Assembly (NCBI RefSeq): GCF_053078305.1
Contig: NZ_CP166879.1
Length of the DNA: 64,000 nt
Direction: 5' to 3' (one strand)
This document shows, piece by piece, positions 20,701-26,700 of the stretch. Position numbers: made by a program. Positions within the stretch are counted from its first letter, which is position 1; every line of letters starts with the position of its first letter.

Positions 20701-23700
20701 TGTACGTCGGAAAGCCTGAGATCGCGCGTTCAGCGTCGATTTTCAGCGCTCACGGCGCTACAGGGAACATCTGGTGCTGAATATCTTCGTTCCCGTGGCA
20801 TATTCAGTCTTCCGGTTGAGGGAGTTCGCTTCAACAGCCAGCAAAATTATAACGGGCGCATGTTCCAGTCTCTTTATGCCCTGGCGACCGATGACAAGGG
20901 AGAACTGTGTTACCTGCATCAGACATTGCTTGATGGAGCTAAAAAAGCAGACATTGGTATCAGCGCCAGAAGGCTCAAATCTTTACAGGACGATAACTAT
21001 CTGGACCATGCCCGGTCAGTTGCTATCAGGATGTTTCCGGTAGCCAGTACACTGGGTATAGCTGAAGGTATCGAAACCGCGTTGTCCGCACATCAGATTT
21101 ACAAAGTAAATACCTGGGCAACCATTAACAGTGGTTTTATGAAAAAGTTCCGCGTACCGGCGGGAGTCACCCATCTGATTATTTTTGCCGATCGCGATGA
21201 ATACAGTGCTACCGGAATGGCTGCGGCCTGTGAATGCGCACATGCAAATCTCCAGGCCCGAAATGACATTCAGCGGGTAAGTGTCCGGTGGCCTGATCAT
21301 GATGATTTCAACAATATGCTCATGAACGGCGATCAGGTTCGGGAACTGGTTTTTTACAGAAAAAAGGCGGTTGCGTGATGCGTACGGACAATCAGGTACA
21401 TAAAGCTTTATTCACTATCCCGGCGGCAGCGTACAGCGCCGTTCCGGCAAATATCAAACCTCTGCCAGAACAAAGGAGGATCACCGGACATAAACAGACT
21501 GATGCTTATCTCTGGATTCTGGAGGTTATTCACCTGAACGAGGCCGTACATCTGGACGCAGCCGAAGCAGCACTGGAGAAACTCAAAATAACGCCGGAAG
21601 AAGCGAGTGAACGGTATGGACGTTATTTGCAGGAGATTAATGTTGATCCTTTCCAGATTGCTTTCGCAACCATAGGCATGGATAACCCGGCGCAGGCGAT
21701 CAGGAATGCCCGTGAGAATATCAAAAAAGCCGCATCAGTCAGGGCCACATTTGGCAGCTATGAGGCAGCACTCGACGATGTGGAGGCTGAGCGGATAATT
21801 CGCACCTCCCCGAAATTTATCGACGATTACTACTGGGGCTGGACTGCGGCAGAGAAAAAAGCCGGAAGTATTGACGGTGTTCGCTCAAATGAAATTGATG
21901 ATCAGCGTCGTGCATATGTTGATGGCTATCGTGATGTACTGCCAGAGCCTCATACATTGTCAGACGTTGTTCGTGAGTTTATTTACTGGGACTGGCTTTA
22001 TGAGATGCGCCAGACAGCGGGGAGAGAAACAGGGGACAAATACGGTTTCACAGGTGAACATCATGAGTCAGTATATGATCGGCAGTTCTGGCTCGAAAAT
22101 TTGCTGGGAAAAATAAAGCCTGTGACGCGTGATGAAGCGGTTGAAGTGTGTCGCTGGTTTCTGGCAAGCGGAAAAGATGAGTACATGGAAGACAATGGTT
22201 CAGCGGTCATTCTCAATCTGGTTGGGGAGTGTGAGCAATGAAGCCGGAGATATCCAGTAGACATTTTCCCCCTGAGCATTCAAATCAGAAAAAGTATGGT
22301 TACAGCGGAGTACAGAATAATGCGTGATATCCAACAGGTTCTGTCCCGATGGGGTGCATGGGTGGTAAATAATCATGAGAGTGTGGCATGGTCCGGCGTC
22401 GCTGCCGGATTTAAGGGAGTGATCCCATCAAAGGTTAAATCACGGCCTCAGTGTACCGATGATGATGCGCTGATTATCAGCAATTGCATGGCGCAACTGA
22501 ACGTCAACAACAGCGATTTGCATGATTTTCTGTATGATTATTATGTGTTCGGGATGACGCTTATGGGACTGGGCCGTAAGCATGAGCGCTCTGATTGCTG
22601 GGCCGGGCGGGTACTGCAAAAAGCTGAAGGTGTTATTGAGGGGATGTTGATTATGCAGGGAATAAAACTGGAAATGGACAGATACGTTGAGCGTGAACGA
22701 TCAGGGGCACAGGTCAGTCAGTTTTCCGGACATACGGGAAATTGAAAGCGCGGGGTTTTACTGTAGAATGACTGCGGGTGCTTGAGGGGGTCTGCCTCGG
22801 GCATGCTGCCGTAAGGCAGACGGAGAAAAGCCCCAGTTAACATTACGTGTCCTGCAAGACGCTTAACATTAATCTGAGGCCCAATCTATGTCACACAACC
22901 GTAGGTTAGCCTCTTACGTGCCGGAAGGCAAGGAGAAGCAGTCTATGAAGCAGCAAAAGGCGATGTTAATTCGCCCTGATCGTCATCTGTTTAACCGTCA
23001 TAGTGACGGCACTGGTAACGAGGAAAGACCTCTGCGAGGTACGGATCCGAACCGGCCAGACGGAGGTCGCTGTCTTCGTAGACTACGAATCTGAGAAGTA
23101 AGAGACCAGGCGGGGGAGTAATCTCCCGCCACCTCTGATGTGTCAGGCATCCTCAACGCACCCGTACTTTATTTGTCATATGCTCCGCAAAATGCAGGTT
23201 GTCGTTGCAACCCGTGCGGTAATTTTTTGTGTGCGAGTGCTCAAAAAACGTTGATTTTCATAAAAGGATAATTTTATGCTGCCAGACCAGCGACCAGCGA
23301 CCAGCGACCAGCGACCAGCGACCAGCGACCAGCGACCAGCGACCAGCGACCAGCGACCAGCGACCAGCGACCAGCGACCAGCGACCAGCGACCAGCGACC
23401 AGCGACCAGCGACCAGCGACCAGCGACCAGCGACCAGCGACCAGCGACCAGCGACCAGCGACCAGCGACCAGCGACCAGCGACCAGCGACCAGCGACCAG
23501 CGACCAGCGACCAGCGACCAGCGACCAGCGACCAGCGACCAGCGACCAGCGACCAGCGACCAGCGACCAGCGACCAGCGACCAGCGACCAGCGACCAGCG
23601 ACCAGCGACCAGCGACCAGCGACCAGCGACCAGCGACCAGCGACCAGCGACCAGCGACCAGCGACCAGCGACCAGCGACCAGCGACCAGCGACCAGCGAC

Positions 23701-26700
23701 CAGCGACCAGCGACCAGCGACCAGCGACCAGCGACCAGCGACCAGCGACCAGCGACCAGCGACCAGCGACCAGCGACCAGCGACCAGCGACCAGCGACCA
23801 GCGACCAGCGACCAGCGACCAGCGACCAGCGACCAGCGACCAGCGACCAGCGACCAGCGACCAGCGACCAGCGACCAGCGACCAGCGACCAGCGACCAGC
23901 GACCAGCGACCAGCGACCAGCGACCAGCGACCAGCGACCAGCGACCAGCGACCAGCGACCAGCGACCAGCGACCAGCGACCAGCGACCAGCGACCAGCGA
24001 CCAGCGACCAGCGACCAGCGACCAGCGACCAGCGACCAGCGACCAGCGACCAGCGACCAGCGACCAGCGACCAGCGACCAGCGACCAGCGACCAGCGACC
24101 AGCGACCAGCGACCAGCGACCAGCGACCGTAAATCAAGAAAGTCTGTAAAATCTGTTGAACCAGACATTGCCGACCGGGCTAACAGCTGGCTCAAATCTT
24201 ATGGACTTGATTACAAACTGGAGCAGGCACCACTTAACAACGAGATCGATAACGCACTGGATGCTTATTTTTCGAAAAATGGCGGCGCAGGCGGTAATCG
24301 TCCCGACGTAAAACTCCTTGTTCAGGACAAATACGGCAAGCAGTATCCCGTTCTCATCGAGTATAAAGGCTACAAGGACAGGCTTATCAGACTTGGCAGC
24401 AACGGTATTATTGAGAACAAAGATGCCAGAAAAGAATGGAATTTTAAAAATATTAATGGATACGCGGTGAATGGCGCAGTCCATTATGCCAACGCACTTC
24501 TTCAGTTCACCAATTACCCTGATATTATTGCTATTGGTATGACCGGCTGGCGCGATGATGATACAGGCGAACTGCATCATGAAATCGGCGTGTGGTACGT
24601 ATCAAAGAATAATTTAGGAGCCGGGCAGAAGGTTGGTGAATTCACCGACTTATCATTCCTTGCTGACAAAAATGTTGATGGATTTCTCAACAAGATAAAG
24701 CTGCTTAATCTTCCTCCCGAAGAACTGGAAAAAATCAAGGCCAGCAAAGAGGAAGAGATAGACACGCGACTTTCCCGTCTGAATAACGATATTTACCAGA
24801 ATGAAAAGGGGCTTGGTGAAAGCGATCGTGTTTACCTTGTTGTGGCTACCGTTATTGCAACGTTGGGGATTCCGGGAAAGTTAGCACCGCTGGATAAAAA
24901 AGAACTGACCTCTTCAACGGAGGAGGACTTGCGTGATGGTGATATTATTTTCAGGAAAATAAGGAATTTTTTAAGGCTGAAAGCTGTTCCTGAAACAAAA
25001 AGAGAAATGATTTTGCGCTCGTTGCAAAATACGCTGTGGACTGAAAACATTAACAAACCAGTCAACGGTGAAAGCCAGTTAAAGCGCGTGTTTGTTAAAG
25101 TTGTTGATGATCTTGGGGAGTATTACAAAATCGGACTGACCACCGATTTTACGGGCAAACTGTTTAATGAGATGTATCGCTGGCTTGGATTTACGCAGGA
25201 CAAACTCAATGACGTCGTTCTGACACCACCTTATGTTGCCACATTGCTGGCACGACTCGCCAGAGTAAACAAAGATTCCTATGTGTGGGATTTTGCTACA
25301 GGTTCTGCGGGATTGCTTGTGGCTGCAATGAATGAAATGCTCATTGACGCCAGAGAAAATATTCACTCACCGAATGAACTACAACTTAAGGAAGCGCAAA
25401 TCAAGGCTGAACAGCTTCTTGGCCTTGAGGTGTTATCCAGTATTTATATGCTGGCCATCCTGAATATGATTTTGATGGGGGATGGTAGCTCGAATATCCT
25501 CAATAAAGACTCGCTAGCCGATTTTGACGGCAAGTATGGATTTGGGAAAACAGGAGAAAAATTCCCTGCGGACGCATTTATTCTCAATCCTCCGTATTCA
25601 GCTAAAGGTAACGGCATGATTTTCGTGCAGAAGGCGCTGTCGATGATGGATAAAGGCTATGCTGCAGTGATTATCCAGAGTTCAGCCGGCACAGGAAAGG
25701 CTACGGAGTACAACAAAAAAATACTCAAGGAAAATACCTTGCTGGCAAGCATCAAAATGCCTGCGGATCTGTTTATTGGTAAATCAAGCGTTCAGACGTA
25801 CATTTACGTTTTTCAGGTAAAAATTCCGCATAACGCGAAACAGGCTGTTAAGTTTATCGACTTTTCCAATGACGGCTATGCTCGCTCTAATCGCAAAAAG
25901 GCAAGAAACAATCTTGTTGATGCCGATCGTGCAAAAGAGCGTTATCAGGAGGTTGTGGATCTGGTTCACTTCGGGAAAGGTTGCCTTAATATCTTTACGG
26001 AGGATGAATATTTTGAGGGAACAATCGATCCTGATAGTGGTGAGGACTGGAATCAGACTAGGCCAGTAGATACCAGACCGACACTGGAGGATTTTAAAAA
26101 GACGGTTGGCGACTATCTTGCGTGGGAGGTGTCAAAACTTCTTCAGGGGCGTGATGCGTCAGAAAAAAAGCAGTAAACTCCCGTCTTGCAGAGCTTGAGC
26201 GGGAGTTTATTAAATCTGGTGGTAAATGGGAAGAATACACAATCGAAAGATTGTTCAGTATTCAGACACCTAAAAAGAAATTTAATGCCAATAAATTAAC
26301 ATTTAATGGCAACTATCCTTATGTTGCCAGAGGAAGTAACAATAACGGCATAAAAGGATATATAGATGAAGATGAATTATATCTCAACCCGGGGAATACA
26401 ATTAGCTTTGGTCAGGATACTGCGACTATGTTCTATCAGGAAAACGCATATTTCACAGGTGATAAAATAAAGATTTTTTCTCTCAGGCATGGAGAGTTAA
26501 ATTCGCGAATTGCTTTTTTTCTTATATCAGCAATGAAAAAATCTTTTTCAACGTTTAGTTGGGGGAGTAGCTCTTTTAATGAGAATGTTCTCAATAAGGT
26601 AAAGATAAATATACCTACGTTTAATAATGTTCCTGCATATAATTATATGGTAAAGTATATAGAAGAGCTGGAAGCGGCCCATATAGAAGAGCTGGAAGCG

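Follow-up and report, generated by a model that had tools for sequence, protein, structure and literature searches.

A heptanucleotide tract as a probable ON/OFF switch of a BcgI-like restriction-modification enzyme on an Escherichia coli prophage

Does a perfect heptanucleotide repeat of 844 bp at the 5' end of a restriction-modification (R-M) gene turn the encoded enzyme on and off? This question is raised by an Escherichia coli prophage in contig NZ_CP166879.1 (NCBI RefSeq assembly GCF_053078305.1), of which a stretch of 64,000 nucleotides, here called the window, was analyzed. An original prediction made from this stretch alone had proposed a hypermutable switch. This proposal is now supported by comparative evidence: the tract changes in length, both phases occur in nature, and the gene is intact and constrained. 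From these comparisons we consider it likely, with a probability of roughly 80%, that the tract is a slipped-strand ON/OFF contingency switch on a prophage-encoded BcgI-like Type IIB/IIG R-M enzyme.

The heptanucleotide tract and its reading frame

The predicted switch and the enzyme downstream of it consist of the following features:

23244–23275, + strand: 5' leader of the switch cassette with an A-run, the TTGATTTT block and the Shine-Dalgarno (SD) sequence AAGGAT, common with a Type III mod gene from E. coli that produces Shiga toxin (STEC)
23276–23284, + strand: start and first codons ATG CTG CCA (Met-Leu-Pro), the same in all tract-bearing alleles and in the Type III mod cassette
23285–24128, + strand: heptanucleotide tract (GACCAGC) x 120.6, read as (DQRPATS)n, the putative hypermutable element (tandem repeat search, periodicity)
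24129–26176, + strand: body of the BcgI-alpha-like R-M enzyme (PADLOC, Pfam, motifs)
24130–24149, + strand: stops closing the two non-productive frames, TAA 24130–24132 and TAA 24147–24149 (reading-frame check)

Tandem Repeats Finder (TRF) reported a single array at 23285–24128 with a period of 7, 120.6 copies, 100% matches, no indels and a score of 1688, and a direct periodicity check returned the same perfect stretch of 844 bp. The repeat is as perfect and uninterrupted as had been described; its left edge, previously placed at 23282, was set 3 nt too early because CCA at 23282–23284 is the third codon and lies outside the repeat. The order read from the sequence is ...AAAAGGATAATTTT ATG CTG CCA (GACCAGC)n GACC, where the tract ends and GTAAATCAAG... 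follows. The SD sequence AAGGAT is located 8 nt 5' of ATG 23276, and the tract begins 9 nt after this codon. The open reading frame (ORF) extends from ATG 23276 on the + strand to 26176 and is in frame throughout, encoding 966 aa; the present copy number is indeed an in-frame one.

The unit of 7 bp is not a multiple of 3. As translation confirmed, all three forward frames are free of stops across the tract and each reads as a rotation of the same cyclic peptide DQRPATS, an unremarkable property shared by 69% of all heptamers. Both non-productive frames end 2–21 nt 3' of the tract, and the products of OFF alleles terminate in ...SDQQ or ...VNQESL. Two antisense ORFs on the minus strand (23176–24195 and 23274–24137) were rejected as genes; their ends shift with tract length, and what keeps them open over the tract is only that none of the six frames of the heptamer contains a stop, which holds for 50% of heptamers. 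The 'YXWGXW repeat-containing protein' or 'hypothetical protein' which the Prokaryotic Genome Annotation Pipeline (PGAP) places antisense over the tract in relatives (L003, L005, L007 and others) was likewise judged to be an artefact of the repeat.

A start codon downstream of the tract, which would make repeat length irrelevant to expression, was looked for. The first in-frame ATG, GTG or TTG 3' of the tract is GTG 24467, which is located beyond the PD...EYK nuclease motif and has no clear SD sequence; the tract does lie between the only usable start and the catalytic domains, as originally claimed. Tract-free homologues (73% identical, 677–686 aa) occur in Neisseria, Providencia and Methylophilaceae with N-termini of the form M..KS(I/V)EPNIADL (MTRASKKSNKSIEPNIADL..., MARLQSVEPNIADL... 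and MAQSIEPNIADL..., respectively), and the position of their Met is the exact end of the tract in E. coli (...KSRKSVKSVEPDIADR...). Since the homologues start at the tract end and the E. coli gene has no start there, translation must cross the tract. Furthermore, the first 40 codons after the tract show a ratio of nonsynonymous to synonymous substitution rates (dN/dS) of 0.14–0.36 between alleles, and allele differences right at the tract edge are mainly synonymous changes. Three independent lines of sequence evidence indicate that the native start of the enterobacterial gene is gone and that the gene relies on the ATG 5' of the tract. GTG 23229, used by PGAP as a start in another frame in strain 04-00955, has no ribosome-binding site and is an annotation artefact. 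PGAP also predicts products of 653 or 569 aa, which begin at a TTG absent from the window or at a GTG; these truncated proteins, named 'HsdM family methyltransferase', were rejected as artefacts of the frameshifted state.

Translation from ATG 23276 would read the whole tract and add MLP(DQRPATS)n in front of the nuclease and methyltransferase (MTase) domains. Because 7 is not divisible by 3, the gain or loss of one unit would shift the enzyme body into or out of frame, and because nuclease and MTase form one polypeptide, restriction and modification would switch together. Units are expected to change by replication slippage; unequal sister-strand recombination probably adds at such lengths and would explain jumps of many units. 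Loops of 7 nt are thought to escape MutS and mismatch repair. Protein, methylation and restriction are predicted to follow the phase, and a lysogen population would become a mixture of cells with and without the defence and its methylation pattern. The benefit may be that lysogens hedge their bets on a defence that is costly or dangerous to themselves.

Variation of length and phase among relatives

Beyond the window, 25 records of the locus were retrieved, all of long-read level and taken from complete genomes and from one phage. Tract length ranged from 16.9 to 120.9 units among 25 records, the window having the longest tract. Flanks of about 2.95 kb, i.e. 900 nt upstream plus the enzyme body, were compared, and 30 pairs of loci differed by zero substitutions; in 28 of these 30 pairs the tracts differed in length, by 2–34 units. 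The Symbioflor strains G8, G6/7 and G1/2 have 99, 83 and 93 units, and three O111:H8 strains have 83, 58 and 56 units. Tract length therefore changes far more quickly than single bases do. The comparison with relatives that had been proposed as a check of the switch gave lengths of 17–121 units, and copy number is not uniform across lineages.

The enzyme body is in frame with the upstream ATG in six of the 25 records (the window, G8, 2012EL-2448, 09-00049, JNEC-KY173 and OkiPb01692) and OFF in 19; this ON fraction (24%) does not differ from 1/3 (p=0.40). The ON alleles have 31–121 units and the three longest tracts are all ON; the relation between ON state and tract length was not significant (Mann-Whitney p=0.19). 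At all 27 loci examined the enzyme body is intact with 681–682 codons, and its dN/dS is about 0.05 between diverged alleles at a synonymous divergence (dS) of 1.2–1.8. The enzyme body is under strong purifying selection. About three quarters of the loci are out of frame, yet there is no second lesion; together with the purifying selection, this fits a reversible switch and not decay.

An earlier suggestion of recent expansion holds for the individual lengths, which are recent, but not for the tract itself. The tract is kept in alleles at a dS of 1.2–1.3 and is therefore an old feature of the gene family; with an identical unit and ATGCTGCCA it is present in four alleles of 87–98% amino-acid identity. 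A Salmonella enterica contig of the gene starts inside heptamer-like sequence just 5' of the body, as would be expected of an assembly interrupted at the tract. In a lambdoid allele known from metagenome contigs (L179 and L180; gene start at L179:1383), which is located directly after Q, only two degenerate units are found. This gene begins with ATGCTGCCA AATCAGC GACCAAC, giving MLPNQRPTNKSRK, and its SD sequence GGAGGA is stronger; by sequence it would be a fixed-ON form, either unexpanded and ancestral or decayed.

Several observations weigh against the switch. G6/7, O111:H8 7-32 9A, UCPROB-002 and phage PhiR12_3 (L008, L010, L013 and L172) all have a tract of 584 bp; these four records show 0–1 flank substitutions and come from Germany, Nebraska, Chile and a phage with the recorded host ECOR13. 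Two OkiPb strains both have 167 bp of tract. Instability of the tract therefore does not extend to every timescale, and its length can stay the same over some epidemiological spans; the sharing of 584 bp reflects either recent phage spread or a tract less unstable than the other comparisons suggest. Some records contain imperfect units of 6 or 8 nt, and the ON/OFF states were taken from consensus assemblies, in which a wrong phase could result from indel errors of long reads. Pure neutrality accounts for the ON fraction no worse than selection does, an in-frame enzyme might still be hampered by a low-complexity tail of about 280 aa on its nuclease domain, and a scan for sigma-70 promoters passed none in the R-M leader.

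Phase changes would be mere noise if the tract were a runaway microsatellite, neutral and placed in a 5' end that a decaying or rarely needed gene can do without. The ON fraction is that expected from random drift over three phases, and the locus is rare, being present near full length in only 25 of 5426 complete genomes; permanently OFF genes, however, would gather lesions, and the bodies are intact and constrained. Additionally, the tract persists with an identical unit across alleles at saturating synonymous divergence, and a second R-M gene has retained the module as well. In a REBASE survey of 662 Type III mod genes bearing simple sequence repeats (SSRs), tri-, hexa- and nonanucleotide units were almost absent, with no trimer tract of more than three units, 14 hexamer tracts and 1 nonamer tract (PMC5909438), which argues for selection on frame-shifting. 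A neutral tract is very unlikely in the face of these data, and it is scarcely conceivable that the tract, or its exact length or phase, is a sequencing or assembly artefact. Short-read assemblies do collapse the tract to 3–22 units or have contigs ending there, an effect also described for the Type III locus (PMC5909438), and the units off by 1 nt in some long-read records may be errors; but 25 independent complete-genome or phage records have long pure tracts at the same site, and fragment analysis by polymerase chain reaction (PCR) of the same heptamer in the Type III gene gave real tracts (PMC5909438).

Other explanations accept the repeat as functional and assign it another role. Tract length itself could matter in addition to phase: restriction would be graded against methylation either by (DQRPATS)n acting as a disordered bristle or by slow translation of 40 CGA codons. 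The tail, of 70–280 aa, would be attached directly to the nuclease domain, the nuclease domains of BcgI must pair across protomers to cut (PMC3592470), and the three longest tracts are all ON; nevertheless, the lack of a significant relation between length and ON state, the wide span of the ON alleles and the fact that long tracts are also explained by lack of constraint plus expansion bias make this explanation unlikely. Alternatively, only restriction would switch, with OFF phases making an MTase-only protein from GTG 24467 or ATG 24539 and thereby avoiding self-restriction on the return to ON. These first in-frame candidates lie just past PD...EYK and before the MTase domain, and PGAP independently calls the 569-aa product from GTG 24467 in several genomes. 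We regard such a protein as quite improbable: a convincing SD sequence precedes neither codon, the choice of PGAP is merely the longest ORF remaining after the frameshift, the other allele group is given a different codon (the TTG absent from the window), and there is no evidence for an internal promoter or for conservation of GTG 24467 or ATG 24539 as starts. Switching of the entire enzyme remains the preferred explanation.

The enzyme, its specificity subunit and the prophage

The gene downstream of the enzyme and a repeat inside it are located as follows:

26251–27360, + strand: gene of the specificity (BcgI-beta / HsdS-like) subunit (PADLOC Specificity_II, E=1.3e-18, 341-position profile)
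26657–26723, + strand: 24-bp repeat, in frame and read as IEELEAAH x 2.8, within the specificity subunit's central helical region (TRF)

Minus the tract, the product of the first gene comprises 683 aa and is matched over its full length by the PADLOC fusion model REase_MTase_IIG (E=4.8e-234); Pfam gave a match to N6_Mtase and a weak one to VRR_NUC (E=0.0015). The nuclease motif PD(343)...IEYKG(361) is N-terminal (24302–24370) and is followed by the S-adenosylmethionine motif DFATGSAG(672) at 25289 and the catalytic NPPY(771) at 25586. A single chain hence carries an N-terminal PD-(D/E)XK nuclease and a gamma-class N6-adenine MTase. Genes adjoining the enzyme in relatives match Pfam Methylase_S, and an ORF scan of the operon region, from Q to the lysis genes, revealed neither a helicase nor an ATPase. 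These features identify the predicted system as a BcgI-like Type IIB/IIG fusion of nuclease and methyltransferase whose S subunit is encoded separately, the BcgI-like label being based on the PADLOC model class and on the depositor's annotation of the orthologue in phage PhiR12_3 as 'BcgI alpha chain-like'. A sequence search of the PDB found no solved relative. The HsdM name given by PGAP was rejected: the score against TIGR00497, the HsdM equivalog model of NCBIfam, (36 bits) is far under the cut-off of 242.75, and the enzyme is therefore not a Type I M subunit; furthermore, the operon contains no hsdR and the protein has its own nuclease domain.

The IEELEAAH repeat of the specificity subunit is present in 2, 3 or 4 copies among relatives. 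OkiPb01714 has 4 copies versus 2 in OkiPb01692 and OkiPb01696 with identical flanks, and SCU-104 has 3 versus 2 in G6/7. By analogy with EcoR124I/II, copy number probably alters the spacer of a bipartite recognition site.

The R-M operon is surrounded by the following elements:

22320–22745, + strand: antiterminator Q gene (PHROG phrog_79, anti-termination protein Q-like, E=8e-42; 'antiterminator Q family protein' in all relatives)
22776–23171, + strand: hok/sok type I toxin-antitoxin between Q and the R-M operon (Rfam RF01794 sok at 22776–22947, 97.6 bits)
27426–27445, with T-run to 27452, + strand: terminator-like hairpin AACCCGC-CGATGC-GCGGGTT 3' of the specificity gene (consensus scan only)
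27719–27930: small RNA STnc100, full-length Rfam match (167.6 bits), flanked by the R-M operon and the phrog_143 gene

The window is a lambdoid prophage with helicase, primase, NinG/H, Q, hok/sok, the R-M operon, lysis genes and structural genes. A Hok/Gef coding sequence is annotated at the hok/sok site in relatives. About 5000 E. coli records match only the hok segment of the window (22763–23171; positions 464–872 of the query), and homology to prophages without R-M genes stops near 23171; this and the gene order place the operon after Q and ahead of the lysis cassette. The R-M genes are carried by about 29 records in total, including the 25 complete genomes with a near-full-length match, and one phage record carries the locus. 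The stx genes of Stx phages occupy the same interval between Q and lysis genes (PMC6266700). The hairpin is the probable end of a self-contained two-gene operon. Farther 3', holin-like, lysozyme-like and Rz-like ORFs, labelled from translations only, extend over 30749–32323, and structural genes follow.

Some further elements were recorded around the operon. A strong promoter-like sequence, TTGAAA-16-TAGAAT, is located right after Q at 22742–22769 and could be the hok promoter or a late promoter. TTGATT-N18-TATGCT over the start codon of the R-M gene was rejected as a promoter; it scores 8/12, and its transcripts would lack the ATG. The annotations of relatives show a remnant, a partial 'site-specific DNA-methyltransferase', in the interval that separates the R-M operon from the phrog_143 gene. 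An ORF at 33345–34151, just 5' of the large ORFs that come after the lysis genes, contains in-frame 12-bp repeats at 33481–33533 (4.4 copies) and 33574–33610 (3.1 copies) encoding the peptide KIDHEIDHKTDHEIDH.

A cassette shared with a Type III gene, and known systems

The same heptamer occurs in a second R-M gene of E. coli. The STEC Type III mod gene M.Eco131I contains a phase-variable CAGCGAC[n] tract (Atack et al. 2018, NAR 46:3532, PMC5909438); its methylation motif is GCC(m6A)TC and the copy number varies between strains (PMC5909438). Fragment length of CAGCGAC[n] was heterogeneous within strain populations, and PCR fragment analysis showed real tracts longer than those in short-read-based GenBank sequences (PMC5909438). 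The original view of repeat-mediated phase variation as unusual in Escherichia has to be revised, as this heptamer already drives a reported E. coli gene.

We located the Type III mod gene in complete genomes with the published primers of Atack et al. It is found on plasmids of about 93–117 kb; in one record (L039) it adjoins mobA and relaxase genes, followed by a DEAD-box helicase gene. Its 5' end in L039 reads ...GAAAAAGCTTGATTTTTATTGAGGGAATTTTT ATG CTG CCA (GACCAGC)29.7, the counterpart in the window being ...CAAAAAACGTTGATTTTCATAAAAGGATAATTTT ATG CTG CCA (GACCAGC)120.6. BLAST aligned the window and L039 from the tract to 32 nt 5' of the ATG (23244), with nothing significant elsewhere. Within the leader, the block AAAAA.C.TTGATTTT...A.GGA is invariant in five alleles, and a local alignment restricted to the leader scored 23 against a shuffle mean of 15.8, a value reached by 14 of 1000 shuffles, and was collinear with the ATG. 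A similarity farther 5' (score 33) was discarded as a chance-level match of 30 nt (BLAST E=0.5), which limits the homology to the segment from -32 through the tract. Compared by BLASTP, the window protein and the mod product of L039 showed no significant match (best E 0.21), and an M.Eco131I-type Type III mod identity of the window gene was ruled out: only leader, ATG and tract are shared.

Enterobacterial plasmids commonly carry relatives of the mod gene that lack the tract, and the homology of these relatives starts precisely at the tract end; one such relative starts MQTELIKELNKVLKAFPQFWNG..., and the Type III form continues after the tract with ...TELIRELNSVLRGFPLFWNG.... Judged from these alignments, the module of leader, ATG-CTG-CCA and tract appears in both genes to have replaced only the native ribosome-binding site and the first codons. 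The BcgI-like gene is the more likely donor of the cassette, because it has held the tract over deep divergence and also has a degenerate form, versus what looks like a single Type III lineage. More tentatively, the leader, ATG-CTG-CCA and (GACCAGC)n may constitute a transferable phase-variation module grafted onto defence genes of E. coli mobile elements; the long tract would supply recombination homology, contingency would spread horizontally, and in the present operon the module would be joined with a second variable repeat, so that both ON/OFF state and target spacing vary. We hold this wider idea as possible, not as probable.

Among 5426 complete E. coli genomes the tract was found in only 40 records and in two contexts, the BcgI-like and the Type III gene. 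Scans of IMG/VR and of metagenomes recovered the same locus again, in forms that short-read assembly had collapsed or truncated, and revealed no third gene context; tract contexts in IMG/VR outside E. coli (L015, L019, L031, L033) have other flanks and short tracts. The species representatives of GTDB, scanned for exact matches to ATGCTGCCA followed by three units, gave none, and a scan for the bare heptamer found only unrelated high-GC genomes (a Planctomycetota metagenome-assembled genome (MAG), Marichromatium and actinomycetes), which is uninformative on the locus. GACCAGC tracts of at least five units stand at dozens of places in the Planctomycetota MAG JALHRW01 (L044–L108) and in Marichromatium bheemlicum (L110–L116); these are dispersed repeats unconnected with the E. 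coli cassette.

The searchable literature contained no description of the BcgI-like locus, of the shared cassette or of tracts of such length. Hence, the BcgI-like prophage locus, the extreme tract lengths at long-read level, the grafted cassette and the companion repeat in the specificity subunit appear to be undescribed there. Systems of this kind are well known, the repeat itself is already on record as an E. coli phase-variation tract, and no new mechanism is involved. To our knowledge, E. coli is not known for SSR contingency loci and is usually treated as being without them; here a putative one is found on an R-M enzyme of a prophage present in enteropathogenic E. coli (EPEC)/STEC and commensal lineages. 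The main text of a survey of SSRs in Type I systems does not mention E. coli (PMC7383803). The predicted differences in expression between cells would create populations mixed for phage defence, DNA uptake and genome methylation, and progeny phage could be marked differently. The occurrence of the cassette on an unrelated Type III gene suggests a modular switch that moved between genes. The locus also exposes systematic failures, namely short-read assembly at the tract, PGAP truncation to a nuclease-less 'HsdM' and a spurious antisense gene, and it lends itself to measurements, in E. coli, of slippage in heptamer tracts of great length.

The phasevarion mod genes of Haemophilus, Neisseria and Moraxella carry tetra- or pentanucleotide tracts, and cj0031 of Campylobacter jejuni encodes a Type IIG enzyme, with restriction and modification in one polypeptide, that is phase-variable by poly-G. 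As in these genes, an SSR in the 5' coding region would shift the frame of an R-M methyltransferase, and as in cj0031 both activities reside on a single chain and would switch together. Unlike them, the present locus is phage-borne and requires a separate S subunit, no effect on a regulon (phasevarion) is known for it, and it has a 7-nt unit and an 844-bp tract instead of the usual tens of units. The central repeat of hsdS varies in copy number between EcoR124I, EcoR124II and EcoDXXI. The specificity subunit described here resembles them in that a short in-frame repeat in a conserved central helix varies between close relatives; its unit is 24 bp (8 aa) versus 12 bp (4 aa) in EcoR124I-type hsdS.

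In BcgI, subunit A combines nuclease and MTase, B is HsdS-like, and the protomer is A2B (PMC3592470). The prophage locus shares with it two genes (about 681 and 369 aa here versus 637 and 341 in BcgI; PMC3592470), an N-terminal nuclease motif followed by a gamma-type N6-adenine MTase, an S-like partner and the lack of an ATPase motor subunit, whereas BcgI has no repeat tract and is not phase-variable. M.Eco131I has the same host species, the same heptamer (a rotation of GACCAGC) in the same register, ATG CTG CCA and a homologous 32-nt leader; in both cases the tract stands right after the start of an R-M gene on a mobile element and varies in copy number between strains. M.Eco131I differs in being a Type III Mod with a DEAD-helicase Res on plasmids of about 100 kb, whereas the window encodes a BcgI-like nuclease-MTase and S subunit on a lambdoid prophage. 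The Type III form, with about 30 units in the locus read, looks like one lineage among many tract-free mod homologues, and the BcgI-like gene carries 17–121 units.

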